From a virus (taxonomy: Duplodnaviria; Caudoviricetes): DNA of 64,000 bases. The notes below the pieces were generated by a model that worked only from the letters and a program-made list of their open reading frames with translations, was not told the DNA's origin and did no database searches. Location of the stretch: IMG/VR virus record IMGVR_UViG_3300009108_000480; one strand, given 5' to 3'. Below are positions 47,657 through 61,326 of this stretch, piece by piece; within the stretch, counting starts at the first letter, position 1; every line of letters begins with the position of its first letter. The translations under genes were made by a program, and so were the position numbers.

Positions 47657-50600
47657 ATGATTAACGCAAAGTTAAGGAAGATTTTATTAAGCACAGCTCT
47701 TGCTACGACTCTATCAGCTTGTGGAGGCGGTGGCGGTGGTTCTGGTGCTGGTGTTGTAAATGATTTTGTTCAAGGTGATTTATCTAATTTATCAGGATCA
47801 AGTTCTATTGTAAGTTCTTATTCAAGTTTATTATCAAATTTCCAATCAACTATTTCAAGTGGAAACTATTCTAGTTTACAAGCAGTATTAACAGGACCCG
47901 ATGCAGATGATATAGAGACAGCAAATACACTATTATCAATGTTAAACCAAGCAGAAACACTTTGGTCTCAAACAGAAGATTTAATATCAAGTAAAGACGA
48001 TTCAACAAAATATACAATATATAATTCTAATTCATATAAAGAAGCATACGCGGCCATGATTTATTTGAGAGATCATGTTAAACCTATTATACAAAAAGTA
48101 TCAAATGGTAATGCAGTATCTCTAACAGAATACAATTTGGTTGCAAAAGAAGATAAAGCACAAGAAATTATTAATACAGAAAAAGATACAACTGCAACAA
48201 GTTATGCTGAAACTAAAAAAATTAAAAGTACAGAAACAGTAAGTGGTACATCTACAGTTTCAACAGTTGATACAGTAGGTACTGCTGAAGCATCAACTTC
48301 AACAAGTGACTGGACAACTGTAAATGCTGGTGGTGGACAAGAAACAAGAACAATTACAATTACTACTCCAAATTACCGAACTACTACAACAACACCTTGT
48401 ACAATAGTTAGAAAAACTTTATTAAATGGTACAACAGTTGATAGTGCCTGTACATATGGAACACCGGTTGTTTCTACAATAGCTTTAGATCCAACAGTAG
48501 AAACTTCAACAGAAACTAGAGAAGGTGACAATCCAGTAATAACATCAGAAACTCTTGAAGCTACGGTTAATACAGTTACTGAAACCAACGATCAATATGT
48601 TGTGACAAATTATGCAGATGCAGAAGATACAAATACAACTACTGCAAACGGAACTGCGGTTACTACAACTGCAAACAGAGATGTTGTTACAGATGTTGAT
48701 AATGGTGACAACACTACGACAAGAACAACCGTAAGATATGTTGATACTACAATTACTACACCAGTCACAACTACGGTAACAAGAACAAGAACTTACACAG
48801 ATATTACAAAACAAAATTCTAGAACAATTACAACTACAACACCACAAACAAAGGTTACATATAAAGACGGTACATCAGAAACTATTTCAGGTACTGCAAC
48901 AGTAGTGACAAGTGATTGGACAGTTAATACAATTAGTACTGCTACAAGAACAGAAGAACTACCAGTTAGTGAAACAACTGCTAATACAGTTTCTACTTCA
49001 AGTAATTCAGGTACACAAATTGCACAGGTTACAATTTCAAACGCATACACAGATCAAGATACAACACTAGGTACAAAAACAGAAAATATGTCTACAGTTG
49101 TAAATGATCACAAAACAACTGAATACAATACAAACCACGGATTGAATACTATAAATGCCGCAGATGCTTATGCAAAAGGATGGACAGGTAAAGGTGCAGT
49201 ATTAGGAATAATTGATACATACCAACAAACTGATCACCCAGAATTAAGTGGCAAATATAAATGGTACAATGATTATACAAGATATGATAATACAGTATCT
49301 ACATCAGGCAATACACAAGTTCACGGTACACACGTTGCAGGTATTATAGCAGGTAAAAAAAATAATACAGGAAATCACGGTGTGGCGTTTGATGCCGAAT
49401 TAGTTGGTGCCAACGTTGACTATTATGGATATGGTGGTATTTCAAAAAGTTATGCTCAACAGGCATTACATGATTTTGCAAAATTAAAAGATCCAAATGG
49501 CGAAAATTTAAACATTGTCGCAGTTAATATGAGTTGGAATACTCCAACATTGTTTACTAATGGACAAGGTAGTACAGTAACTCAATTAGGAGATGGCACA
49601 TATAACGCATCAGAAATTACTTCAAAAATGGACAATGGTGATGGAAATGCAAAATATTATAAAGTAGCAACTGACAACGATATTATTTTAGTAAACTCTG
49701 CAGGTAACTATGGATTCAATCACTCAGGTGATCCCGGTATTTGGGCAGTAGAAGTAGATGCAAGTGGAAACCTTATATTAGGTGGCAAAATGATTATTGT
49801 AGGTAACTGGGATAACGGAACAATTGCAGGTAATAAAGCAGGTCACGTATGTTTAGACATTTCTAATAATGCTTGTAATGACCAATACAAAGTTTCAGAC
49901 TTTTATATTTTAGCACCAGGTAATCTTATCAATAGTTCTGTTCCAACTCATTTAGGTGGCAATGGATATATGAATATGTCTGGTACTAGTATGGCGGCAC
50001 CACACGTAACTGGAGCATTTGGTGTAATAAATCAAATGTGGCCACACATGAAAGGTGACAATCTTGTTAAACTTATATTGTCTACTGCAAATAAAAATAT
50101 ATATGGTTATAATGTAAACACACACGGACAAGGTTTATTAGATTTAAGTGAAGCAACAAAACCACAAGGTGCAACAGGTATTCCAACAACAGGTAGAACA
50201 AACGGACCAATTATAAATGTATATGGAACATATTTTGCAACTGGTACTGCGTTGCCAAGTAATTTAGCAAATTTAAAAGTAATGATATTGGATGAATATG
50301 AAAGAGATTATTATCTAAATTTAGGATCAAGTTTTTCAGTTAAAGATATGAGAAAAGTATCTGATATAGATATGATGATGAATGGACACACATATCTTCC
50401 AATTCAATCTATGTACGGAAATTTTGCACAAGGTGGCAATTATGATTTAGGATATATGAACTTTGGTATATACTCAGGTGAAAATGGAAATGGAGACTTT
50501 TCAGCAAATATAGGTAAAAACTTTATGTTAAGTAATAAATTTAAATTAAAAACATCAATTGGACAAATGAATGAACAAGACAACTGGTTAGGTAACTCTT

Positions 50601-51268
50601 CAAGTGGTGCATTAGCAGTTGGTGATAATAACATTACAAATTTTGGACAAATAGGTATTGAATATCAATTAGGTAACAATGTGTTAAGTTTTGATTATTC
50701 AAAAGGTTATACAGATGTTAATACAACTGATAATAGTTTAATAACAGGATTTGATAACATTGAAACAGAATCTATGAAACTAGCATATGAAGTACACAAG
50801 GATCAAAATAATTCTTGGGGATTCTCATTATCAACACCAAGTCATATTACAAATGGTACAATGAATTTAACGGTTCCTGAATCAAGAACATTAGATGGTG
50901 ATGTTAATTATACAACTATCGAATCTGATATGAGTCCTTCTAAAATTGAAAAAGATATTGGATTCTTTTATAATCACACACCAACAAATGATATGGATGC
51001 ATCTTGGAACTTTAAAGCAGAATACAGACAAGATATTGCTGGACAAGATGGACACGATGGTGTTAGTTTAGGATTTAACTATGTTAAAAAATTACACACA
51101 AATTGTAAATTTTTATGGATGAAAAATCCAAAATGTTACGAAAAAGATGGCAAAACTTTAAAAGCAAATTTATACGGTGACAGCAGAAATAATAATTCAA
51201 TAGCATTAACACACGGATTAGTTTACGATTTAGAAACAGACAAATTCGTTCCAATTAAAAAGAAATAA
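47657..51268 (+). CDS. Lipoprotein S8 subtilase with Thr-rich stalk and probable C-terminal beta-barrel
   Basis: Lipobox LSAC-GGGG; triad GIIDT, HGTHVAG, GTSMAAPHV; oxyanion NSAGN; HGQGLLDL; amphipathic beta-strand C-terminus. Confidence 0.9.
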   Translation: MINAKLRKILLSTALATTLSACGGGGGGSGAGVVNDFVQGDLSNLSGSSSIVSSYSSLLSNFQSTISSGNYSSLQAVLTGPDADDIETANTLLSMLNQAETLWSQTEDLISSKDDSTKYTIYNSNSYKEAYAAMIYLRDHVKPIIQKVSNGNAVSLTEYNLVAKEDKAQEIINTEKDTTATSYAETKKIKSTETVSGTSTVSTVDTVGTAEASTSTSDWTTVNAGGGQETRTITITTPNYRTTTTTPCTIVRKTLLNGTTVDSACTYGTPVVSTIALDPTVETSTETREGDNPVITSETLEATVNTVTETNDQYVVTNYADAEDTNTTTANGTAVTTTANRDVVTDVDNGDNTTTRTTVRYVDTTITTPVTTTVTRTRTYTDITKQNSRTITTTTPQTKVTYKDGTSETISGTATVVTSDWTVNTISTATRTEELPVSETTANTVSTSSNSGTQIAQVTISNAYTDQDTTLGTKTENMSTVVNDHKTTEYNTNHGLNTINAADAYAKGWTGKGAVLGIIDTYQQTDHPELSGKYKWYNDYTRYDNTVSTSGNTQVHGTHVAGIIAGKKNNTGNHGVAFDAELVGANVDYYGYGGISKSYAQQALHDFAKLKDPNGENLNIVAVNMSWNTPTLFTNGQGSTVTQLGDGTYNASEITSKMDNGDGNAKYYKVATDNDIILVNSAGNYGFNHSGDPGIWAVEVDASGNLILGGKMIIVGNWDNGTIAGNKAGHVCLDISNNACNDQYKVSDFYILAPGNLINSSVPTHLGGNGYMNMSGTSMAAPHVTGAFGVINQMWPHMKGDNLVKLILSTANKNIYGYNVNTHGQGLLDLSEATKPQGATGIPTTGRTNGPIINVYGTYFATGTALPSNLANLKVMILDEYERDYYLNLGSSFSVKDMRKVSDIDMMMNGHTYLPIQSMYGNFAQGGNYDLGYMNFGIYSGENGNGDFSANIGKNFMLSNKFKLKTSIGQMNEQDNWLGNSSSGALAVGDNNITNFGQIGIEYQLGNNVLSFDYSKGYTDVNTTDNSLITGFDNIETESMKLAYEVHKDQNNSWGFSLSTPSHITNGTMNLTVPESRTLDGDVNYTTIESDMSPSKIEKDIGFFYNHTPTNDMDASWNFKAEYRQDIAGQDGHDGVSLGFNYVKKLHTNCKFLWMKNPKCYEKDGKTLKANLYGDSRNNNSIALTHGLVYDLETDKFVPIKKK

Positions 51269-51464: not shown

Positions 51465-52006
51465 CATTTAAAATTGAATTGTCTTCAACATATTGGGACA
51501 CACCCCCAATAGCAGAAATAAAACTTAATAAATCAAGCGATAAAACAATCACCGATGTTGATAATAAAAATCTCTTTGATTATGATTCTAACAAACCTAT
51601 ACTTAACATTGATAATTCATATTTCAAAAATGAAATTACTAGTACAAAAAATAAACCAACTATAATTACATTTGAACACGAACTTGAACACAATAAATCA
51701 TACGATTTTATTATAAAGAGAACTAACAAAACTCCCAAGCAAACTATTGTTGAAGATGGCAAAATTGTTAAAGACCAAGCATTACATATCGGTCAAATAA
51801 CAATTGATGAAATTGATATAGGAGCATTAGTATACGAAGGTATATATAGACCAGAATATCCTGAACCATGGGCATCACAACAAGCAAAAGCAGGTAACAA
51901 ATTGCCTGAGACCTTTAAAAATGTAACTGAAATGGGTCATAACGGATCTTGGACATTCACATTCACTTCTCCCTTTTATATGTGGTTACTTGAGAACCTT
52001 TACTAA
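51446..52006 (+). CDS. Hypothetical beta-rich protein (paralog of 20004..20567)
   Basis: Shared TxKxPKxTxVxxxKIxxD and GxWxxxxxxP segments. Confidence 0.65.
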   Translation: METEKLTFKIELSSTYWDTPPIAEIKLNKSSDKTITDVDNKNLFDYDSNKPILNIDNSYFKNEITSTKNKPTIITFEHELEHNKSYDFIIKRTNKTPKQTIVEDGKIVKDQALHIGQITIDEIDIGALVYEGIYRPEYPEPWASQQAKAGNKLPETFKNVTEMGHNGSWTFTFTSPFYMWLLENLY

Positions 52007-52012
52007 TAAATA
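52006..52012 (+). promoter_or_regulatory. Late-type motif ATAAATA
   Basis: 6 nt before ATG 52019. Confidence 0.6.
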
Positions 52013-52018
52013 TGCTTA

Positions 52019-52387
52019 ATGAGAGCATATCAATTCATAACAGAAGCACAAGACTCTGACGCAGTAAACGAGCTAGACTCGTACATAATGAATAACGAAG
52101 ATTTATATCGTAGACGTTTTATGCCTATTATTGAAAACATTAAAAGAAAAATGAGAAGAGGTATATACGACCATGAAAAAGTAATTAAATTATGGATGTA
52201 CCTTGTAGATGATGCGGCCAGAGAATATGTTAAAGAATTTGGCACACCAGATCAAGATGTTAAAGATATGTTTCCAAAAGAAACTAGATTAAAAGTTGCT
52301 CAAGTAATAGCAGATAGAGAAAAGGAAAATATAGAAAAAGGCGAATACGATGTTGTTAAAGGAACTGTTTCTCAAAGAGGACGGTAG
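52019..52387 (+). CDS. Hypothetical protein with CTS-like N-terminus
   Basis: Starts MRAYQFITE. Confidence 0.65.
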   Translation: MRAYQFITEAQDSDAVNELDSYIMNNEDLYRRRFMPIIENIKRKMRRGIYDHEKVIKLWMYLVDDAAREYVKEFGTPDQDVKDMFPKETRLKVAQVIADREKENIEKGEYDVVKGTVSQRGR

Positions 52388-53519
52388 GGCAACAGCCGTT
52401 TTTGCTTTTGGCCGATTTAATCCTCCCACAATAGGACACCAAAAATTAATTGAACTGGTCCAAGCCCAGGCTAAAAAAGTTAATGGCAAAGGATTTATTT
52501 TTCTATCTCATACACAAAACGCAAAAAAAGATCCACTTTCTTTTAATCAAAAGTTAGCATATCTACGAACTTTAATAAATGATCCAGATTTAGAAATTGG
52601 ACATAGTGAAGCAAATACAGTCATAAAAGCATTACAAGTTATTGAAGCACAAGGCAGAACAAGAGTTATAATGGTTGCTGGTAGTGATAGAGTAATGGAA
52701 TTTGATAAACTGTTAAAACAATATAATGGCAAACCAGATCAAAAAGGCAACGAACTTTATAATTTTGATTTTGTAGATGTTATAAGTGCTGGAGAAAGAG
52801 ATCCAGACGCAGAAGGTATATCAGGTGCTTCGGCATCTAAGGCAAGAGAGTTTGCACAAAACGATGATTTTGCAAATTTTTCTAAAATTGTAATGGGCGG
52901 TACAAAAAGTAAAACAATTTACCAAATGATTCAAAATGCTATGGGTGTAAAAGTTGCAATGAACAACGAAAAGTTGTACAATGAACAAATGGAAAATAAA
53001 CCTATAGTGTATATAGATATGGATGGAGTATTAGCTGATTTCTTTGGAGGCGTGGAAAAACTATATGGCGTAGAACATTGGAAACAATTAACATCAGATA
53101 AAACAAAAGATTTAAAACAAGAAGTAATTAATCGAATTACTGGCACTGACTTTTTTGCAACACTCCCAGAATTTCCAAATGCTGATCAATTAATTACTTT
53201 GGTTAAAAAATTTACTGGAGGTTCGTTTTCTATTCTAACATCACCACTACGGGGTGATCATGAAGTTTCGTCAAAATACAAAAAACTATGGATTGAACAA
53301 CATATTGAAAAACCAGATGAAACTATTATTACTGGAAGAAAAGAATCATACGCAAAAGACAAAGCATCAGGTACACCAAATATACTAATTGACGACAGAC
53401 CAGTTAATATTGAACGTTGGCAAGGGGCAGGCGGATATGGAATTTTATACCAAGCGAATAGAGATCCATTAAGTAAAGTACAACAAGCACTTGACAACTA
53501 TGGACAAAACGATCAATAA
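52350..53519 (+). CDS. HIGH-family nucleotidyltransferase fused to 5'(3')-deoxyribonucleotidase-like HAD domain
   Basis: FGRFNPPTIGH, MVAGSDR, SASKAR; then IVYIDMDGVLADF, ILTSP, LIDD. Confidence 0.82.
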   Translation: MLLKELFLKEDGRATAVFAFGRFNPPTIGHQKLIELVQAQAKKVNGKGFIFLSHTQNAKKDPLSFNQKLAYLRTLINDPDLEIGHSEANTVIKALQVIEAQGRTRVIMVAGSDRVMEFDKLLKQYNGKPDQKGNELYNFDFVDVISAGERDPDAEGISGASASKAREFAQNDDFANFSKIVMGGTKSKTIYQMIQNAMGVKVAMNNEKLYNEQMENKPIVYIDMDGVLADFFGGVEKLYGVEHWKQLTSDKTKDLKQEVINRITGTDFFATLPEFPNADQLITLVKKFTGGSFSILTSPLRGDHEVSSKYKKLWIEQHIEKPDETIITGRKESYAKDKASGTPNILIDDRPVNIERWQGAGGYGILYQANRDPLSKVQQALDNYGQNDQ

Positions 53520-54693
53520 ACATTTCTGCATTCAGCCCTTTATAAACGTAACTACAAGAATTACCGGAAATCACAACGTCTGTTGTAATACTACATTTAA
53601 AGACAGCAATATAAAAAAACAAACTTCATACGATTTTTTTAATTCCGATAAAGTTAAAAAAATGAGAAATGACTTGTTAAATGGTAAAAGATTAGCTGAT
53701 TGCCGTTTATGTCAATATCAAGAAAAAAGTGGACATCATAGTCATAGACAAAAATATAATGAATACTATTTTATTAAAAACAAACAATCCTCTGATTATT
53801 ATAAAAATATTGTAGAAAAATTACATATTAATACTTTGCAAAGACCTTTATATGTTGATATACATATTAGTAACCTATGCAATTTAAAATGTTTAACTTG
53901 CAACGAACGTGATAGCAGTATGTTTCATGCTGAAAACAAAATATTAGGTATTAGTGAGGCTCCTAACACAAATTATACAAAATTTGTAGTAGATACTGTT
54001 GATGCAATTAAGGAAATAATACATCCAAGATTATTGTTTTTAGATATACGAGGTGGAGAAACTTTAATGGTTCCCGAAATAAAAAAAGTCTTATCTACTA
54101 TTCCTAACGATATTGCAAAAAATATTACTTTAAAAATACAAACAAATGGAACAATCTTTCCTGATAAAACCTGGGTATCAATATTCAAAAAATTTAAAAA
54201 TACCAAAGTAAATGTAAGTATCGATGCATATAAAGATGCTAACACTTACATAAGATATCCTTCCGATTGGCAAAAAATATTAAACACAATAGAATATTTA
54301 AAACAACAAAATATTAAATTTATTATAAACACAGTAGTATCTAATCTTAATATATTAAAACTAGACAAATTGCTTAACTGGATAAAAGAAAAAAAATATT
54401 TAAATTACTTCTATATACTAGATGCTCCATTACATTATAGACCTACAAATTTACCAAAACAAATCTTAAAATTAGCAGGTAAACGATTATCTAATATAAG
54501 CAAAGACTTTACTAACAAAGAAATAACTAAAGCAATTGATCAATTAATAGATATGTGCTATAACACAAATAACTTTAACATTAAAAATTGGCAAACATTT
54601 TGCAAAGAAGTACATATAAGAGATAAACATCGAAACAATAATATATTAAATACATTACCCGAACTAGAAGGACATCTTAATGCCAAAATTTGA
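53491..54693 (+). CDS. Radical SAM protein with SPASM/twitch-type Cys clusters
   Basis: FCIQPF..VCC, CRLC, SNLCNLKCLTC, GGETL, TNGT, VSID. Confidence 0.85.
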   Translation: MTTMDKTINKHFCIQPFINVTTRITGNHNVCCNTTFKDSNIKKQTSYDFFNSDKVKKMRNDLLNGKRLADCRLCQYQEKSGHHSHRQKYNEYYFIKNKQSSDYYKNIVEKLHINTLQRPLYVDIHISNLCNLKCLTCNERDSSMFHAENKILGISEAPNTNYTKFVVDTVDAIKEIIHPRLLFLDIRGGETLMVPEIKKVLSTIPNDIAKNITLKIQTNGTIFPDKTWVSIFKKFKNTKVNVSIDAYKDANTYIRYPSDWQKILNTIEYLKQQNIKFIINTVVSNLNILKLDKLLNWIKEKKYLNYFYILDAPLHYRPTNLPKQILKLAGKRLSNISKDFTNKEITKAIDQLIDMCYNTNNFNIKNWQTFCKEVHIRDKHRNNNILNTLPELEGHLNAKI

Positions 54694-54850
54694 AGGAATC
54701 AATAAAAATTATTCATCCGATAAAGAATATAAAAAATCAACACAAGAAGAACGTGATCGTATGATGAAAGAATTTCTTGCCAAAGGTGGCAAAATACAAA
54801 AAATACCTTCTAAAGTAACAAAACAAATGATAGAAAAGGGTAAGTTTTAA
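54680..54850 (+). CDS. Small protein (56 aa) with SutA-like RNAP-binding motif
   Basis: MPKFEGINKNYSSDKEYKKSTQEERDRMMKEFLAKGGKIQKIPSKVTKQMIEKGKF*; not in the ORF track. Confidence 0.6.
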   Translation: MPKFEGINKNYSSDKEYKKSTQEERDRMMKEFLAKGGKIQKIPSKVTKQMIEKGKF

Positions 54851-54866
54851 AAGCATCTACCTAAAA

Positions 54867-54873
54867 ATAAATA
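54867..54873 (+). promoter_or_regulatory. Late-type motif ATAAATA
   Basis: 8 nt before ATG 54882. Confidence 0.55.
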
Positions 54874-54881
54874 CTGATATA

Positions 54882-55427
54882 ATGAATATCAGGAACCTAA
54901 TTAACCAAATTGACCAAATAGAAGAGACTAAAGCACACTATATACAGTCTAAACTACCCTATGGTCTTACAGATCTAGTGCCTGTAATGAGTAAGGACAC
55001 ACTAGACTATCATTATGGCAAACTATATAAAGGCTATGTAGATAAAGCTAACAAAAGTGAGGGCGGTGACTTCCAAATAGCAGGTGCATTCTTACACAGT
55101 TTATATTTTCCTCAATTTAAAGCTCCTGCAGGAGCTAACAGGCCAACTGGTGTTTCTAACGAATTTATAAATGATTTTGACAAGTTTAAAGAAGAATTTA
55201 CAAAAGCGGCAATGGGCATCCAAGGTTCAGGTTGGATCTATATGGATACAAGTGGTACAATTAAAACAATTAAAAATCATAAAGTTGTAAAAAATATTGC
55301 ACTATTAGTCGACTGGTGGGAACACGCATGGGCACTTGACTATCAAGCTGACAAGACAAAGTACCTAGTAAATACTTGGAAGATAATAAATTGGGACGTA
55401 GTTAACGATAGGATTAACGCAAAATGA
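54882..55427 (+). CDS. sod: Fe/Mn superoxide dismutase with N-terminal extension
   Basis: LPY..L.PVMS..TLDYHYGK, FLHSLYF, QGSGW, DWWEHAW (ligands H, H, D, H). Confidence 0.88.
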   Translation: MNIRNLINQIDQIEETKAHYIQSKLPYGLTDLVPVMSKDTLDYHYGKLYKGYVDKANKSEGGDFQIAGAFLHSLYFPQFKAPAGANRPTGVSNEFINDFDKFKEEFTKAAMGIQGSGWIYMDTSGTIKTIKNHKVVKNIALLVDWWEHAWALDYQADKTKYLVNTWKIINWDVVNDRINAK

Positions 55428-56032
55428 GAGCAAATGAATTTTTAGAAGGTCCACATGATCCTTATCAGTATAAAGCAATATTTTTTGCTGGCTCCCCAGG
55501 TGCAGGTAAAACATATGTTGCTAGAAAATTAGCAGGTGTATTCCAAGGATTAAAACAAGTGAACATGGATATTATTTTTAAACATCTTATGACAAGAAAA
55601 AACTTATCATGGAAAATGCCTCCAGAAGAAGAACCTGAACGAGAAAAACAAAGACAAAGATCAAAAGAATTAGTTACTAAACAACAACAATCATTATCTG
55701 ACAGTGGATTGGGTTTGCTAATAGATTCTACAGGTAGAATAGCTGGAACTGTTAGACGTATTAAAGACGAGTTAGAAGATAAAGGATATGAAACAACAAT
55801 GATATTTGTAACCACAGATTTACAAACTGCTTTACGCAGAAATAAAGAAAGAGAACGTACACTACCAGATAAACTTATACATCAAAATTTTGATATTATA
55901 GACCAAAGGTTGGGAGAATATCAACGTATGTTTAATGACGTACACGTTATTAATAATTCTGATATTGAACAAGATTCAATGCCTAAACAACTTGTACAAG
56001 TTGAAAAAAATATAAGGAAATTTTTACAATGA
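55424..56032 (+). CDS. P-loop kinase (zeta toxin/AAA_33-like)
   Basis: AIFFAGSPGAGKT, LIDSTG, ALRRNKERERTLP; starts MRANEFLE. Confidence 0.75.
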   Translation: MRANEFLEGPHDPYQYKAIFFAGSPGAGKTYVARKLAGVFQGLKQVNMDIIFKHLMTRKNLSWKMPPEEEPEREKQRQRSKELVTKQQQSLSDSGLGLLIDSTGRIAGTVRRIKDELEDKGYETTMIFVTTDLQTALRRNKERERTLPDKLIHQNFDIIDQRLGEYQRMFNDVHVINNSDIEQDSMPKQLVQVEKNIRKFLQ

Positions 56033-56277
56033 AAAAACTATTATGGCCATTAATAATGTTAAAGAATATAGTAGATCCTAATTACTGGGCAAATAAAATA
56101 GGCAATAAAACAGGTGCATATGATAAAGCACATAACAGTAAACTTGCACAATGGTCGCGTAGCCTTACAGGATGGAAATGGTGGGCATGGCAAATAGGTG
56201 GTGGTTTAGTATTTGTTGTTGTAATAGAGATGTTATTAAATTTTATAGGCCTTAGTATGTTGCCATGGAGATGGTAG
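56029..56277 (+). CDS. Hypothetical membrane protein
   Basis: Trp-rich, C-terminal TM. Confidence 0.6.
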   Translation: MKKLLWPLIMLKNIVDPNYWANKIGNKTGAYDKAHNSKLAQWSRSLTGWKWWAWQIGGGLVFVVVIEMLLNFIGLSMLPWRW

Positions 56278-56649
56278 ATGAAAAAACTGTTACTAACTTT
56301 ATTTTTTATATTATTTGCGTTTCCAGTATACGCATTAGAATTATTAATGGCACATAATCCTGCTTGTCATATTTGTGAAAGATTTATTAACGAAGTTGCA
56401 GTAGACTACAATGATTCTGATATAGCTAAAAAGCTACCATTGATAATTATTAGTGTATATGCACAACCCGAGTGGTTTAAACAAGCATATGCTGAAAATA
56501 GAATTAAAAAAATTAGAGGAACACCTACGTTTATAATATGGAATGGTAGAAAAGAATTAGGTAGAATTGTAGGATATCAAAGTAAAGGAAGATTTTACAG
56601 TAGACTTACAGAATTATTTCCTAAAGACTACTTTGAGGAGAAACAATGA
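56278..56649 (+). CDS. Exported thioredoxin-fold protein (SoxS-like)
   Basis: Signal peptide, CHIC, IRGTPTF..ELGRIVGY. Confidence 0.75.
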   Translation: MKKLLLTLFFILFAFPVYALELLMAHNPACHICERFINEVAVDYNDSDIAKKLPLIIISVYAQPEWFKQAYAENRIKKIRGTPTFIIWNGRKELGRIVGYQSKGRFYSRLTELFPKDYFEEKQ

Positions 56650-56894
56650 AAATAAATGAAATCATGGGTGAATGGGTAATAATGCCTCAGTCAATTAAAC
56701 CTATGGGTTTAATACGCAAAAAAGGTACTGGTCCAAATAATAGATTTGATTTTAAAAACAAATACAACAACAAAGCAAACGAAGTTGAAAAAGAAGATGC
56801 CATGGGCGTCGGTACTATTACAAAACAAAACACTACAAAAGATGTTAAACCGGGCGAAACACAACGACAATTAAAAAAATTACACCTTAGATAA
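56646..56894 (+). CDS. Hypothetical protein with CTS-like N-terminus
   Basis: Starts MKINEIMGE. Confidence 0.6.
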   Translation: MKINEIMGEWVIMPQSIKPMGLIRKKGTGPNNRFDFKNKYNNKANEVEKEDAMGVGTITKQNTTKDVKPGETQRQLKKLHLR

Positions 56895-56911
56895 TCCAAA
56901 TAATTACACAT

Positions 56912-57598
56912 ATGCGATATATTTTATGCGTTAGTTTTAAATATAAACCTTATAAAAAAACTTGTAATGTCCAAATATTTTCAAATAATTGTATGTTAGA
57001 TGACTTTGAATTACAAAACAAAAAAGTACATCTAAGATATATTGAATTAGACGAAAATGCAATTGGTAACGACTTAACTTTTAAAATTTATAACGATGAT
57101 AACAACTACTCAAATGGCTTCATGACAAAATGGGCCAAAATAAAAATACATAATGTTGTATTACTACCTAAAGCTCTGTTTAATGTAAACAAAATGAAAT
57201 TAATTAAAAATAGATTAAAATTAAAATGGCGTAGAATTATGGGAGAAGAAACGTGGCATCAAATTAATTGGCAAACCGATTCAAAAATATTTCCTCTACC
57301 TGATAGGGAAAAATCACATAAATTACAAAAGTCACATAAATGGCAAATTTATTGGCCCGGTTGTAGATACCCTTATATTAAAAGCAAACTACATGATAAA
57401 GTATTTGAAAATTACTATAATAAATGGATTGGAGAATCTTGCCAAATTATAATGAAAGTAATTAAAAAACACAATTTGCTTATTTTTGTGCCTCCAGCTA
57501 CAAAACGTTTAATAGGTTATTTTTCTATTGCTAGTCTATTAGGCATCACTCCATACATAAATATATATAATGAAAATAAACGAAGTCATAATGCGTGA
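56912..57598 (+). CDS. Hypothetical protein
   Basis: ORF; DDNNYSNGFMTK motif. Confidence 0.6.
   Translation: MRYILCVSFKYKPYKKTCNVQIFSNNCMLDDFELQNKKVHLRYIELDENAIGNDLTFKIYNDDNNYSNGFMTKWAKIKIHNVVLLPKALFNVNKMKLIKNRLKLKWRRIMGEETWHQINWQTDSKIFPLPDREKSHKLQKSHKWQIYWPGCRYPYIKSKLHDKVFENYYNKWIGESCQIIMKVIKKHNLLIFVPPATKRLIGYFSIASLLGITPYINIYNENKRSHNA
57557..57563 (+). promoter_or_regulatory. Late-type motif ATAAATA
   Basis: 6 nt before ATG 57570. Confidence 0.6.
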
Positions 57599-57851
57599 AT
57601 ATGCAACTGCGGGCGCCACTTCGGCTGGCAATATAGCGGCAGTTGTAAGTCCACATATAGCTATAGGTAAAGACCGTGGCAATAAAGCATATACAGGTAC
57701 ACCAGGACGTTCAGGTACTAAAGCACCAAGACTACCTAAAATAGTACAACCCAAAAATCCAGACGGTTCAGCCAAAGGTGCACAAACAGGCAAACTAGGA
57801 AAAGATGTTAGCTTGTTTGGTGGACCATTGGTTAAGAGGAGTTACCCATAA
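57570..57851 (+). CDS. Hypothetical protein with CTS-like N-terminus
   Basis: MKINEVIMRE followed by ATAGATSAGNIA. Confidence 0.65.
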   Translation: MKINEVIMREYATAGATSAGNIAAVVSPHIAIGKDRGNKAYTGTPGRSGTKAPRLPKIVQPKNPDGSAKGAQTGKLGKDVSLFGGPLVKRSYP

Positions 57852-58258
57852 TGAGAGCACAAGAATTTACAGAAGGTGCAGATTTTTTAGGATACAAATA
57901 TAATGCTCCTACAAGAACATGGGAATTTCCAGATGGTTTTGAAACGCAAACTGGACATTTAAGTAATCATAGTGTAAGGGAAATTCTAGACGCATTAGGA
58001 TTAGATTCAAATTTTGAGGACGCAGGTCCAATTGAAGTAGACAAATTTATAAACATATCTACTGCATGGTTAAAGAAAAATCTTGACAAACCATCAGCAG
58101 ATGTTCCAACAACAGTTGATAAATCCGGAGGCGGAGCAACTATGATAAGTGGTGGCAGACCTGAGGGTTGGATAAACAAAATGGTTATGACATTTAATAA
58201 AGAAGCAAGAAGAATTAAACAAGCACACCCAGATTTAACACACGTGGCATTTGCATAA
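57851..58258 (+). CDS. Hypothetical protein with CTS-like N-terminus
   Basis: Starts MRAQEFTE; TAATG coupling. Confidence 0.65.
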   Translation: MRAQEFTEGADFLGYKYNAPTRTWEFPDGFETQTGHLSNHSVREILDALGLDSNFEDAGPIEVDKFINISTAWLKKNLDKPSADVPTTVDKSGGGATMISGGRPEGWINKMVMTFNKEARRIKQAHPDLTHVAFA

Positions 58259-60201
58259 TGAGATTAAAAGAAATTAACAAACCTATAAAAGAATATCGAA
58301 ACGTAGTTATTCCAAAAGATGAGGCACATTATAGAGAACTGATGAAACATCTCCAAGACATGGAATTAGATCCTGTGAATAGACGTGATGAAAAACTTAT
58401 GGCAGAAATACGAAGAAGAAGAATGGAACTAAGAAACTGGGCAGAAAAAAATATAAAAAGAGAATCACAACCTGATGTAGGTGCCGAAAGAGCAGATGCG
58501 GCTAGAGGTATGTGGGCATCAAGTAAAGAAATACAATCAAGATTTAAAACTTGGCAAGACTTTATGAATTCAGAAGATTTTGATGAATGGTTAGATGACA
58601 AGTTTAGAGAAGACATGATTCCAAATAATATGCCGGGTAATATTGGTGACTATGCTCATGAAAAATCTACAGGTAAACTTGTAAGAATAGTTGACTATAC
58701 AGATGACGATGAAGGCATTTACACAATATCTTACGGTGAGGGTCAAGGCGAAACAGATGTGACTGCAGGAGATTTAGAATTTATAGATCCAACTGTACAT
58801 CAAGACTTAGATGACAAAATATTAGACAAAGAAGTTGATGAAGGCTTTATAGGAAAGAAACCAGAATACACTGATTTTTTACAAAACAAATTAGAAAAAG
58901 CTATGCAAGAATACGATACCCCAGAAAAAAAAGCACAACGTGATGCGTTGATGAAACAATATCTTGCTAAAGGTGGTTCAGTTGAAAAAATACCAGCTGG
59001 TCAAAAAGCATTTGTTGGTAAAAAGTTAAAACCAGCATATAGAAAAGATAACGGAACACCTATTACAAGTCCAGGAAGTGATGAATCAGTAAAAGAATTA
59101 GATGACAAAGAAAGAACTATCTCTACTATCAAACACAGTTCTGATAAGGATGTTGCGTTTTTTGACAAGATGATGAAACGATATGGACCTAAACTGATGG
59201 AACTGATAATCGATTATAGTCATATCAACAATGATCAAAAAAAGGCAGAAAAATTAAAAAAATGGGGTAGGGAGGATGATGTATACTTGTCAGACTACTA
59301 CAATCAACTGTTTCATGTAGACGAAGACCTTATTAGTATGCTCATGTCAGCGGCAGATAACAATCCTAAATTAATAGATTTCTTCTATGACAAAGTGGAA
59401 CAGGCCAAAAAGGCAGGACAGTTTGCAAAAACTTCAAGGTTACCAGATCCTGACCAGACAGAAGAATCAGCAGTACAAGAAGACGCACCATTTGATGGAA
59501 AAGGTATATTACAAAGAGCAGTTTTTAATAAATGGATATCAGCAGAAGAATGGTATCATTTAAAAGATGAATGGCAAGATGCGGCTCGAGAATTAGAACA
59601 AAGATATAGTGATTGGCCAGACGGAGAAGGGTTTGGATCATCGGATCATAATTTTGCAATTAGAGATTTAATGAGTATAGTAGGATACGAATTTGATGAC
59701 CAAGACACTAGTGGTAAATTTGTTGTAACTAAAATGCCAGAGAAATTAGAAAAATTAGGTATAACAAACGTAAGAATGAAAGGCGAACCTGTTGCAACAG
59801 AGGCAGAGCAAAATGAAGATACAGAAGCAACTTTATTAGGTAAAGCTGAAGCTTCTTTAATGCACGGATTAGAAATGGCCCAGGCTGTACTTAAAAAAAA
59901 TTATGGCATGGCAGAAGTTCAGGCTAAAGTTATTTCAGAAAATTGGCCACCTTTAATTGATAAAATTAAAAATGTATACAAAACAACCGAACAAAATCAA
60001 GATGGTTTACAACCAGTTGATTTAAAAAGATTAGGTCAAACAGAACCTAAAATATATGTTCATAAAGATGGCAAAACAATAATGATACCAAAAAGAAAGC
60101 ACAACGAGTATCTTGCGAAAGGATGGAAAAAATCGGCATTAAGGGCTGAGACTTCATACGAGTCAAAACTTGCCGAAATGTTAAAACAACGTCTTAAATA
60201 A
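58258..60201 (+). CDS. Modular acidic protein (647 aa), probable internal head protein
   Basis: Starts MRLKEI; patchwork of short modules; internal SutA-like motif. Confidence 0.6.
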   Translation: MRLKEINKPIKEYRNVVIPKDEAHYRELMKHLQDMELDPVNRRDEKLMAEIRRRRMELRNWAEKNIKRESQPDVGAERADAARGMWASSKEIQSRFKTWQDFMNSEDFDEWLDDKFREDMIPNNMPGNIGDYAHEKSTGKLVRIVDYTDDDEGIYTISYGEGQGETDVTAGDLEFIDPTVHQDLDDKILDKEVDEGFIGKKPEYTDFLQNKLEKAMQEYDTPEKKAQRDALMKQYLAKGGSVEKIPAGQKAFVGKKLKPAYRKDNGTPITSPGSDESVKELDDKERTISTIKHSSDKDVAFFDKMMKRYGPKLMELIIDYSHINNDQKKAEKLKKWGREDDVYLSDYYNQLFHVDEDLISMLMSAADNNPKLIDFFYDKVEQAKKAGQFAKTSRLPDPDQTEESAVQEDAPFDGKGILQRAVFNKWISAEEWYHLKDEWQDAARELEQRYSDWPDGEGFGSSDHNFAIRDLMSIVGYEFDDQDTSGKFVVTKMPEKLEKLGITNVRMKGEPVATEAEQNEDTEATLLGKAEASLMHGLEMAQAVLKKNYGMAEVQAKVISENWPPLIDKIKNVYKTTEQNQDGLQPVDLKRLGQTEPKIYVHKDGKTIMIPKRKHNEYLAKGWKKSALRAETSYESKLAEMLKQRLK

Positions 60202-60227: not shown

Positions 60228-61061
60228 ATGGCACGTAAAAAACCTTACACAGATAATTTTGCAGACTTGGTTGCTCGTTTGAACGCAATGAGCAATATGA
60301 CTCCTGAACAAGAACGAAAATCTTTGTTGGAATCCGCTAGTGCTGAACCAAGACTATTAGATGAAAAAGATGTTAGCCTAGCAGATATTGCCAAATTAGC
60401 TGGAATTAAAGAATACGTTGATCCAGTAAAAGTTTCTAAAAAAGCAAAAAAATTAGTTGAGGAAATTACCAAACCAGAACCAACATCTAGTATTACTAAA
60501 GCAATAAAAGAATCCGATGCTGATGATTCAATATCAGCAGGTATTAAAAAAGCAGTAACAGAAGAAACTAAAAGATTAGACAAAATTACAGAGCTTGAAT
60601 CACAATTGGCAGAATTAAAAGCACAAGAAAAAGAAGATGCAACTTTAGATGATAAAACATTTAGAGAAAGATTTGTTTCAGAAATAACTGAGTACGTAAA
60701 AAAAGCCGAAGGAACTGAATTAGCAGAACTTTACAATAAGTTTTCAATGAATGAAGTAGAGTTACAAGAAAAAAACTTCTTAATTAAAACACCAGAAACA
60801 AAAGAAGTTATTGCTGATGCAGAGGCAAAAGAAGCAGAAGCTAACGCAGAAGTTGTACAAGAAAAAGAACCTAAAGCAGAAGAACCAGCAATCGAAGAAC
60901 CAGCAATCGAAGAACCAGCAATCGAAGAACCAGCAATCGAAGAACCAGCTGTGGAAATGGATGCTGTTCAACCAGAAGTAGAAATTCCAACAAAAGACAA
61001 ATTTACAAACGACTTGGATCCTGCACCAAAGGCTCCAAAAACTGAATCTACGAAAAAATAA
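60228..61061 (+). CDS. Acidic helical protein (scaffold/core-like) with EEPAI repeats
   Basis: E/K/A-rich; late promoter upstream. Confidence 0.6.
   Translation: MARKKPYTDNFADLVARLNAMSNMTPEQERKSLLESASAEPRLLDEKDVSLADIAKLAGIKEYVDPVKVSKKAKKLVEEITKPEPTSSITKAIKESDADDSISAGIKKAVTEETKRLDKITELESQLAELKAQEKEDATLDDKTFRERFVSEITEYVKKAEGTELAELYNKFSMNEVELQEKNFLIKTPETKEVIADAEAKEAEANAEVVQEKEPKAEEPAIEEPAIEEPAIEEPAIEEPAVEMDAVQPEVEIPTKDKFTNDLDPAPKAPKTESTKK
60879..60949 (+). repeat. 15-bp tandem repeat, 4 full copies plus a partial
   Basis: GAAGAACCAGCAATC x4 plus GAAGAACCAGC; encodes (EEPAI)4EEPA. Confidence 0.95.
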
Positions 61062-61080: not shown

Positions 61081-61326
61081 ATGTCTGAACTAGAACAACA
61101 TTTACCTTACAACTATAAACAATATCTCGATGATGTTACCAAAATGCGTCAAAGAGGACATATTGCTACAGGTGAACAAACAGCACATCCACAATCAGCA
61201 GGTTCTAGAGGATTAGCAAAGGCTGAAGATTTTATAAATTCTCCAAATCAAATAATGAAGGATAACGACATTACTGAAGTAAATCCTGAATTAGCACGTA
61301 TCAAAAAATTATCTGGTTTAATCTAA
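61081..61326 (+). CDS. Hypothetical late protein
   Basis: Ends ELARIKKLSGLI, echoing DIAKLAGI in 60228..61061. Confidence 0.6.
   Translation: MSELEQHLPYNYKQYLDDVTKMRQRGHIATGEQTAHPQSAGSRGLAKAEDFINSPNQIMKDNDITEVNPELARIKKLSGLI

Follow-up and report, generated by a model that had tools for sequence, protein, structure and literature searches.

Why do eight open reading frames (ORFs) with unrelated bodies, lying in one short cassette of a viral genome, start with a similar peptide that ends in glutamate? The cassette occupies positions 52006-60201 of a 64,000-nucleotide stretch of the IMG/VR virus record IMGVR_UViG_3300009108_000480 (Duplodnaviria; Caudoviricetes), the whole of which is called the window here. 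An initial annotation had proposed that these peptides are equivalents of the capsid-targeting sequence (CTS) of phage T4, loading enzymes into the head for delivery with the DNA. The eight ORFs were recovered on the plus strand at the starts and with the N-termini given there (Table 1). That the peptides are T4-type capsid-targeting propeptides on packaged cargo proteins was judged likely, and this reading was supported by the likeness to T4, the protease motif, the late operons, the portability of the tag, and the proteases and virion homologues of relatives. Packaging and cleavage in the window phage itself are what we infer from these observations.

The source of the window, G000, is a 117.8-kb IMG/VR viral contig of ~32% G+C and a CheckV completeness of ~33%. 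It encodes a T4-type DNA polymerase, with the nearest sequences (44-50% identity) in giant phages such as Sinorhizobium phage Phosso, Agrobacterium phage Atu_ph07 and Pseudomonas phage PA5oct, and short DNA matches led to pelagiphage HTVC008M and to cyanophages. Since this contig is a fragment without head genes, the biology of the head was taken from relatives, among them the 196.6-kb contig G001, whose locus L010 is syntenic with the cassette.

Enrichment of the tag in the cassette

The N-termini were described by a regular expression, ^M[KR]..[EQ][FILVM] (M-[KR]-x-x-[EQ]-hydrophobic), written post hoc from the ORFs of the window. When it was applied to the ORFs of a simple gene call made over the full source contig, the kind of genome-wide motif check that the initial annotation had suggested, 6 of the 13 locus ORFs matched and none of the 142 others did (Fisher p = 1e-7). 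The radical S-adenosylmethionine (SAM) enzyme (ORF 53500), the thioredoxin-like protein (ORF 56278) and the small hydrophobic membrane ORFs, which had been described as untagged, were indeed found to lack it. Contig G001 provided a partly independent test, several of its tagged ORFs not being orthologues of window ORFs (N-termini MKIYEITEG, MRVYEVAKLD, MKINEVTGITEEE and MKINEIVNK). There the expression matched 8/16 locus ORFs and 2/204 others (p = 4.5e-9), one of the two outliers being an 80-aa ORF (MKLMEFF...) that lies between the genes for portal and protease, a place taken in T4 by the core proteins gp67 and gp68.

A bare hydrophobic-x-Glu within the first 16 residues was only weakly enriched (8/13 versus 26/142), and hence the signal resides in the whole tag. 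In an all-against-all comparison of residues 2-9 on G000, the pair 57851/55424 ranked third, after two paralogue pairs, and the pair 57570/56646 tenth; this comparison had little power, with 14 pairs at the threshold versus 12 and 7 in control windows, and for this reason the argument for the tag rests on the regular expression and on the cross-genome data. By the counts with the regular expression, the enrichment was far above chance.

Similarity to the T4 tags and to the prohead protease site

The T4 N-termini were read from record NC_000866; cleavage sites are written here with a slash. The sequence MKTYQEFIAE, cited by the initial annotation as the T4 CTS that is cut after Glu by the prohead protease, was confirmed there as the start of IPII and IPIII (MKTYQEFIAE/A). 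Related N-termini were found in IPI (MKTFKEFTS...ITE/A), Alt (MELITELFDE/D), gp24 (MAKINELLRE/S), gp22 (MLKEQLIAE/AQKIDASVALDS, with A as the first residue after the site) and gp61.1 (MKTFKEFIKE/D), while gp21 contains ...LLIE/T and the maturation site of gp23 reads ...SFLTE/AEIGG. The window tags could be set beside these one by one. MRAYQFITE of ORF 52019 resembled IPIII, differing from the T4 CTS mainly in one deleted residue; MLLKELFLKE/D (ORF 52350) resembled Alt, MKINEVIMRE/Y (ORF 57570) resembled gp24, and MRAQEFTE/G (ORF 57851) and MRANEFLE/G (ORF 55424) resembled IPI and gp61.1.

The internal proteins of the T-even phages have only the CTS in common, its 10 residues are enough to load foreign proteins into the T4 head and deliver them, and gp21 cuts after L/I-x-E (PMC9026906, PMC3012670). 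Determinants of targeting lie near positions 4 and 7 (PMC9026906). The gp21 motif was fitted by ITE, LKE, IEE, INE (ORFs 56646 and 57570) and by LKE and IKE in ORF 58258. A protease of this family (Peptidase_S77) is encoded by the syntenic relatives G001 and G002 (E ~1e-27) and by G005, a contig bearing a superoxide dismutase (SOD) gene, and a gp21-type protease with a T4-type head module was found in S-CREM2, S-SM1 and PA5oct. The gene order in G001 was portal, small ORFs, protease, scaffold-like coiled coil and capsid protein. When the capsid proteins were aligned, the sequence ...KKYLSE/QATAGATSAGNVATL of G001 (Q after the site) fell on ...SFLTE/AEIGG of T4 and on ...GLLTE/APTQ of S-CREM2; therefore, the L-x-E specificity appears to be conserved.

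Tagged proteins in the virions of cultured relatives

The cytidylyltransferase domain of ORF 52350 is homologous to SSM1_190 of cyanophage S-SM1 (E 2e-39), which belongs to the cyanophage core cluster T4-GC190, an experimentally determined virion protein in that phage (PMC3037559). SSM1_190 begins MKKFSAFLNE/A and its P-SSM2 counterpart MKSFSQFLTE/T. For S-CREM2, a list of 52 virion proteins has been published, six of them termed "non-structural" (PMC10665884), and the genome was translated for all 52. Tags of the same kind were read in gp6, a SAM hydrolase (MKDFDSFLEE), gp14, a kinase (VKRFDAFLTE), gp154, a cytidylyltransferase (MKNFSSFLTE), and in gp13 (MKDLHSFLTE), gp136 (MQTFSMFFSE) and gp15 (MNFSEFNE); gp12 showed ...RFASFMAE/A after 16 residues.

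For the genome-wide count in S-CREM2 the caller used ATG starts only, leaving the GTG-started kinase gp14 unscored. A general tag pattern, written after viewing those N-termini, was present in 4/51 virion ORFs and 0/161 others (p = 0.003), and a T4-only pattern in 2/51 and 0/161 (p = 0.057). An equal frequency of the motif on non-virion genes, which the initial annotation had named among the outcomes that would speak against it, was not observed in S-CREM2. The window-derived expression gave no match in S-CREM2, because the cyanophage tags keep the T4 register and are one residue longer.

Additionally, gp223 of PA5oct, a homologue of the window SOD (41% identity), starts MNDSIKKYISIAE/AASS and is flagged in its record as detected by electrospray ionization tandem mass spectrometry (ESI-MS/MS); the PA5oct paper omits it. 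A full-text search, covering few subscription journals, found no publication linking the capsid-targeting sequence to the virion enzymes of cyanophages or pelagiphages.

A copy of the capsid cleavage region and a possible role inside the particle

ORF 57570 reads MKINEVIMRE/YATAGATSAGNIAAV, followed by a basic tail rich in Lys, Gly and Pro, and it is identical to the major capsid protein of G001 at 12 of 18 positions across the predicted maturation site (E 7e-5). The T4 protein gp61.1 is built alike, with its tag followed by GTTSGAVVNKGP, which mirrors QTSGAVTQIGP of gp23, and then by a basic tail. S-CREM2 gp160, a member of the same family as ORF 57570, copies the N-terminal arm of its own capsid protein and was detected in virions. 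Because ORF 57570 copies the capsid cleavage region, the cassette is tied directly to head maturation. The T4 gene 61.1 itself (L157:2967-3131), which encodes 54 aa with a full CTS-like tag and the copy of the gp23 post-cleavage sequence, carries in its record no annotation beyond that of a hypothetical protein.

These observations could also mean that the tagged proteins are packaged and trimmed, yet act in the particle or in its assembly, as core or scaffold accessories, as DNA-condensing proteins or, in the case of the SOD, as a guard of the DNA in sunlit water. The copy of the capsid arm in ORF 57570 would suit such a role, as would the N-terminus of ORF 52019 (MRAYQFITE/AQDSDAVNELDS), which resembles that of the T4 scaffold protein gp22 (11/21 identical, E 0.018). 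Furthermore, two of the cargo proteins combine small size with a strongly basic character, as do internal proteins associated with DNA, and gp67, gp68 and gp22 of T4, which have similar sites, are degraded and not injected (PMC9026906). Nevertheless, CTS-tagged T4 proteins and CTS fusions do reach the cell (PMC9026906), the algal chlorovirus PBCV-1 carries in its particle an SOD by which superoxide is reduced soon after infection begins (PMC7019647), and neither the kinase nor the nucleotidyltransferase-nucleotidase of the window has an evident substrate inside a capsid. A function limited to the particle was considered unlikely, if well worth keeping in view, beside the reading of the peptides as targeting tags on cargo.

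Exchange of the proteins behind the tag

The SOD genes were the clearest case of a tag that stays while the protein behind it changes. The PDB best match of ORF 54882 (1.6e-27) placed residue 24 of the query on residue 7 of 1ues, and the His, His, Asp and His ligands (YHYG, LHSLYF, DWWEHAW), which we assigned by eye against the E. coli SodB sequence, are kept. In G001, the slot of this Fe/Mn SOD is filled (L010:5019-5591) by a Cu/Zn SOD (Sod_Cu 4.5e-44), a protein of unrelated fold nearest to eukaryote-type SOD1 structures, and the two begin with similar tags (MRDLIDKINYIES in G001 and MNIRNLINQIDQIEE in the window). The exchange is a non-orthologous replacement in which both function and tag were kept. 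Solved cellular SODs begin at residue 18 of the window SOD and at residue 36 of the G001 SOD; both extensions are add-ons for this reason, in keeping with the earlier expectation that cellular homologues would lack the tag.

The survey of homologues covered 80 loci, those listed of 490 IMG/VR stretches, for the Fe/Mn SOD and 37 loci for the Cu/Zn SOD. At most of the 80 Fe/Mn loci, an extension of 12-25 aa ending in [LIV]-x-E/[AGS] was followed, after ~10 residues, by the conserved LPY; examples were MYNFIRYVSLNE/G, MKVNDFLTE/A, MKNFSHFIE/S, MKDIKTYINLIE/V and MEIRNTIDLVE/A. Among the same listed loci, an ATAAATA-type box was usually present just upstream. Most of the 37 Cu/Zn loci began MRAQEFTE, MRALEFTE, MRAMEFTE or a near variant, so that ORF 57851 of the window bears the tag found on Cu/Zn SODs in other phage contigs, and they had a second site, ITE/A, just ahead of the SOD core. 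Two giant-virus homologues of the Cu/Zn SOD had no extension and started directly at the core, and no match to this enzyme was found among cultured phage records. At loci L110-L143, residues ~9-35 of the Cu/Zn SODs included a conserved Cys motif, CPRTKAKECSC, between tag and core, which may form a small metal knuckle or belong to a longer propeptide.

The same was observed for the kinase. Orthologues of ORF 55424 (75-80% identity) were tagged MRINEILE/G or MKIKDITE/G and the HTVC008M homologue MIPFILKE/G, which suggests that the tag changes more quickly than the enzyme while its pattern is kept. A 610-aa ORF at L163:280-2112 combines the kinase with a ligase-like domain (KWDG motif) that has its own tag, MLIEDVLLE, and the tag of the kinase is kept internally (..MMRIDELVE/GPYDPY); the head protease may cut this fusion as a polyprotein.

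Other proteins were split or recombined. The body of ORF 57851 corresponds to the C-terminal 135 aa of a tagged 594-aa protein of G001, segments of ORF 58258 matched four different proteins of G001 and locus L006, and two tagged ORFs of G001 (61 aa and 131 aa) matched the C-terminus of S-CREM2 gp160. Whenever a module stood alone as an ORF, it had a tag of its own. The cassette is, as far as the compared sequences tell, hypervariable, with a constant tag and with bodies that appear to be exchanged, divided and joined from one related phage to another. In HTVC008M, locus L013 (104.8-116.4 kb) showed tag-like N-termini on gp127, gp129 (kinase), gp130 (cytidylyltransferase), gp139, gp142 and gp143.

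Late-type promoters and expression

On both strands of G000 the box ATAAATA was found 16 times, versus ~124 copies expected from base composition (~8-fold rarer), and 15 of the 16 lay in the correct orientation no more than 40 nt ahead of a start codon. It preceded ORFs 52019, 54882 and 57570, the adjacent ORFs 60228 and 61081, and tail-fibre-like genes; the earlier claim that several tagged ORFs lie behind late-type promoters was thus borne out, with boxes 6-8 nt before the first three. In G001, 39 copies were counted (~5-fold rarer than expected), 25 upstream of genes and four of them in the tagged locus. In both contigs the box was almost restricted to the 5-30 nt before start codons, a proximity that would give many late mRNAs very short leaders or none. 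The eight tagged genes appear to lie in three late-type operons. The tag is not simply a mark of this expression class, since the radical SAM, thioredoxin-like and membrane genes of the same operons are untagged.

These untagged neighbours also bear on another interpretation, by which the shared N-termini are an expression feature (a translation-initiation context of closely coupled late genes) or a recombination scar or handle, and the homologues in virions are contamination. It draws on the late expression of the tagged genes, many of which begin at ATGA or TAATG overlaps, on the identity of ORFs 55424 and 57851 at 24 of their first 30 nucleotides, on the contamination raised by the S-CREM2 authors, and on the presence of untagged enzymes in the PA5oct virion list. 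Against it stand a pattern that the proteins of T4, cyanophages and pelagiphages share although their sequences differ, and that always ends in the protease motif plus a small residue, the identity of this local sequence with the capsid maturation site, the cellular and giant-virus SODs without extension, and the lack of any tagged non-virion ORF in S-CREM2. This interpretation was regarded as improbable. Hardly any credence was given to the idea that the tag is a recognition sequence for a nearby enzyme such as the radical SAM protein, in the manner of leader peptides that recruit a maturase: ORF 53500 and its G001 orthologue do sit within the cassette, but ORF 53500 is one of several paralogues scattered over the genome, the same type of tag occurs in T4, the tags correspond to sites at which capsid and scaffold proteins are cleaved, and no radical SAM gene is annotated among the neighbouring genes seen by the tagged ORFs of S-CREM2, S-SM1 and P-SSM2.

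Some observations weigh against the proposal that the tags direct packaging and are cleaved. Three tags have Phe or Met and not Leu or Ile at the third residue before the cut (P3), namely FLE in ORF 55424, FTE in ORF 57851 and MGE in ORF 56646, and the end assigned to the tag of ORF 57570, MRE, likewise has Met at P3. Pfam searches gave no match to a prohead protease or a major capsid protein on the ~33% complete contig G000, which carries no scaffold gene either, and among five long SOD-bearing contigs (all fragments, 28-67% complete) the protease was found only in G005. The cytidylyltransferase of HTVC008M starts MKTLKELLRKK, with no Glu, and the L006 nucleotidyltransferase begins directly at its first strand. 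Finally, the S-CREM2 authors left undecided whether the enzymes are encapsidated or are abundant late proteins contaminating the preparation (PMC10665884), and the PA5oct virion list includes a thymidylate synthase, a ligase and FtsH without obvious tags, so that virion mass spectrometry is imperfectly specific.

Gene content of the cassette

The features of the cassette are collected in Table 1. The SOD and nucleotidyltransferase-nucleotidase identities of the initial annotation agreed with the Pfam domains found in ORFs 54882 and 52350. The zeta-like kinase held in part: Zeta_toxin was the best Pfam match of ORF 55424 (50.7 bits, above cut-off), and AAA_18, AAA_33, KTI12 and polynucleotide-kinase PHROGs scored similarly. 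No antitoxin-like partner was seen among the annotated neighbours, and the protein is best called, on these matches, a generic P-loop kinase. For the SutA-motif protein, a 21-residue motif is indeed present in ORF 58258, and it is all that this ORF has in common with ORF 54680; the family assignment was not upheld, since ORF 54680, the sole ORF to match NCBIfam NF041490 (SutA), reached 25 bits against a cut-off of 145.

ORFs 52019, 56646, 57570, 57851 and 58258 matched no family in Pfam, PHROGs or NCBIfam, and a protein atlas returned phage-only clusters alone for ORFs 57851 and 52019. ORF 52019 had more than 1100 metagenomic homologues (>1100) and an orthologue in G001 (83% identity, tag MRASEFLNE/A), and a copy identical to it was found on a contig of 200 kb. 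The C-terminus of ORF 56646 matched that of an 805-aa protein in L006, and relatives of this ORF begin MKIKEFIIMPH and MRINEIIGEW.

Table 1. Features of the cassette in the window. Cleavage sites are marked by a slash; pI, isoelectric point; NMNAT, nicotinamide mononucleotide adenylyltransferase.
Feature	Position	Strand	Details
Late-type promoter box ATAAATA	52006..52012	+	6 nt before ATG of ORF 52019
ORF 52019, 122 aa, no known function	52019..52387	+	Tag MRAYQFITE/A (52019-52045)
ORF 52350, cytidylyltransferase-like (NMNAT-type) fused to NT5C 5'-nucleotidase	52350..53519	+	Pfam (CTP_transf_like, NT5C), PHROGs
Tag MLLKELFLKE/D of ORF 52350	52350-52379	+	Read from ORF start
Radical SAM enzyme (ORF 53500), untagged, same late operon	53500..54693	+	Pfam Radical_SAM 1.3e-12; N-terminus MDKTINKHFC
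ORF 54680, 56 aa, untagged, SutA/PFL_1563-like motif	54680..54850	+	NCBIfam matches far under cut-off
Late-type promoter box ATAAATA	54867..54873	+	8 nt before SOD start
ORF 54882, Fe/Mn superoxide dismutase	54882..55427	+	Sod_Fe_N 4.4e-10, Sod_Fe_C 1.4e-19
Tag MNIRNLINQIDQIEE/T of ORF 54882	54882-54926	+	SOD core begins near residue 18
ORF 55424, P-loop kinase	55424..56032	+	Best Pfam match Zeta_toxin; also AAA_18/AAA_33
Tag MRANEFLE/G of ORF 55424	55424-55447	+	Read from ORF start
Two untagged ORFs	56029..56649	+	82-aa hydrophobic protein; 123-aa thioredoxin-like protein (ORF 56278) with signal-like N-terminus
ORF 56646, 82-aa basic protein, mature pI ~10.2	56646..56894	+	Tag MKINEIMGE/W; alternative site INE/I
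ORF of 228 aa, untagged, no known function	56912..57598	+	
Late-type promoter box ATAAATA	57557..57563	+	6 nt before ORF 57570
ORF 57570, 93-aa basic protein, pI ~10.5, T4 gp61.1 counterpart	57570..57851	+	Tag MKINEVIMRE/Y, then ATAGATSAGNIAAV, which copies the capsid N-terminus left after cleavage
ORF 57851, 135 aa, no known function	57851..58258	+	Tag MRAQEFTE/G (57851-57874)
ORF 58258, 647-aa mosaic protein	58258..60201	+	Tag MRLKEINKPIKE/Y; SutA-like motif at residues 227-247

On the 5' side, the cassette is preceded by a 1203-aa protein (47657-51268) that shows a signal of the lipoprotein type, an extended Thr-rich stretch and a domain of the subtilase family (Peptidase_S8, 2.7e-33). On its 3' side lie two untagged genes (60228-61061 and 61081-61326), each directly behind its own late box. 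The first, ORF 60228, has four tandem PAIEE repeats, is conserved in G001, L001 and L002, and may encode another protein with a structural or scaffold-like role. Positions 1-870 of the window are free of N and are absent from contig G000, the window being taken from another, or a longer, record of this phage.

Discussion

If the peptides are targeting tags, the course of events can be proposed as follows. Late in infection, the tagged proteins would be made from the three late operons, and the tag would bring them into the scaffolding core while the prohead assembles. The tag would then be removed after the Glu of hydrophobic-x-Glu by a prohead protease of the gp21 type (Peptidase_S77), leaving the mature proteins in the head beside the DNA. 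As in T4, where the internal proteins, Alt and CTS fusions do so, they might enter the cell together with the DNA; ejection and early action are the least certain step, for which the arguments on either side were weighed as about equal. The cargo would consist of the Fe/Mn SOD, the NMNAT-like nucleotidyltransferase with its 5'-nucleotidase, the P-loop kinase, two small basic proteins (one of them the gp61.1-like copy of the capsid site) and three proteins without known function. The SOD could quench superoxide at entry, a role proposed for the virion SOD of PBCV-1 (PMC7019647), or protect the particle, and the NMNAT-like enzyme, the nucleotidase and the kinase suggest nicotinamide adenine dinucleotide (NAD) or nucleotide targets.

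A wider and more tentative proposal, which we hold as possible and somewhat less than evenly balanced, is that marine T4-like phages (cyanophages, pelagiphages and giant phages related to them) inject an enzyme kit, loaded by means of interchangeable tags of 8-15 residues, as a first strike before any phage gene is read. Such a kit, put forward with the same reserve, might evolve fast, comprise SODs of two unrelated folds, NAD and nucleotide enzymes, kinases and a SAM hydrolase, and be aimed at the redox state of the host, at its nucleotide pools and at signalling in defence.

The T4 CTS has been treated mostly as a curiosity of the T-even phages and as an engineering tool. If the targeting reading holds across marine T4-like phages, the cytidylyltransferase, kinases and SAM hydrolase in cyanophage virions would be cargo and not contamination, and the packaged, probably injected, proteome of uncultured phages could be predicted from N-termini alone. 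A phage-packaged SOD would also be predicted, with two unrelated folds selected in the same slot; two folds in one slot would in turn indicate that superoxide, at infection or in the particle, is a real selective pressure at sea. The cultured relatives HTVC008M, S-CREM2, S-SM1 and PA5oct offer experimental models.

The mechanism is known from T4, and what is new is its probable occurrence in a marine giant T4-like lineage, with several flavours of tag and with mostly recognisable enzymes as cargo. Like the gp21-processed CTS proteins of T4 (IPI, IPII, IPIII and Alt), the window proteins have a short tag with aromatic or hydrophobic residues around positions 4-7 and a hydrophobic-x-Glu end, and they are products of late-type genes with unrelated bodies, in a hypervariable cassette with at least one enzyme among the cargo (Alt in T4). 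Unlike those of T4, the window tags vary from 8 to 15 residues, fall into several flavours (MRA.EF.E, MKINE.., MLLKELFLKE and M.IR.LI....IE) and sometimes have Phe or Met at P3. The T4 cargo is small, basic and anti-restriction, whereas that of the window, known here from sequence alone, consists mostly of recognisable metabolic and redox enzymes. T4 gene 61.1 adjoins the primase gene, whereas ORF 57570 lies in the cargo cassette and tracks the capsid protein of its own lineage.

The "non-structural" virion proteins of cyanophages (T4-GC190 of S-SM1; gp6, gp12, gp14 and gp154 of S-CREM2) carry tags of the type MK.F..FL.E and include a homologue of the cytidylyltransferase of ORF 52350, and they were found in purified virions, with encapsidation speculated by the authors (PMC3037559, PMC10665884). 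The cargo differs, with a SAM hydrolase and an APH/ChoK kinase in the cyanophages and an SOD and a P-loop kinase in the window. The Cu/Zn SOD of PBCV-1 (A245R) is likewise made late and packaged and is held responsible for a fall in superoxide at the start of the following infection (PMC7019647), but it belongs to a eukaryotic giant virus and has no N-terminal tag. Finally, phiKZ-like phages (phiKZ, 201phi2-1 and SPN3US) also cut head propeptides after Glu, by means of a distant gp21 homologue, and eject a large cargo (PMC9026906); they differ in their S/A/G-x-E motif and in long propeptides that have no short common address tag.

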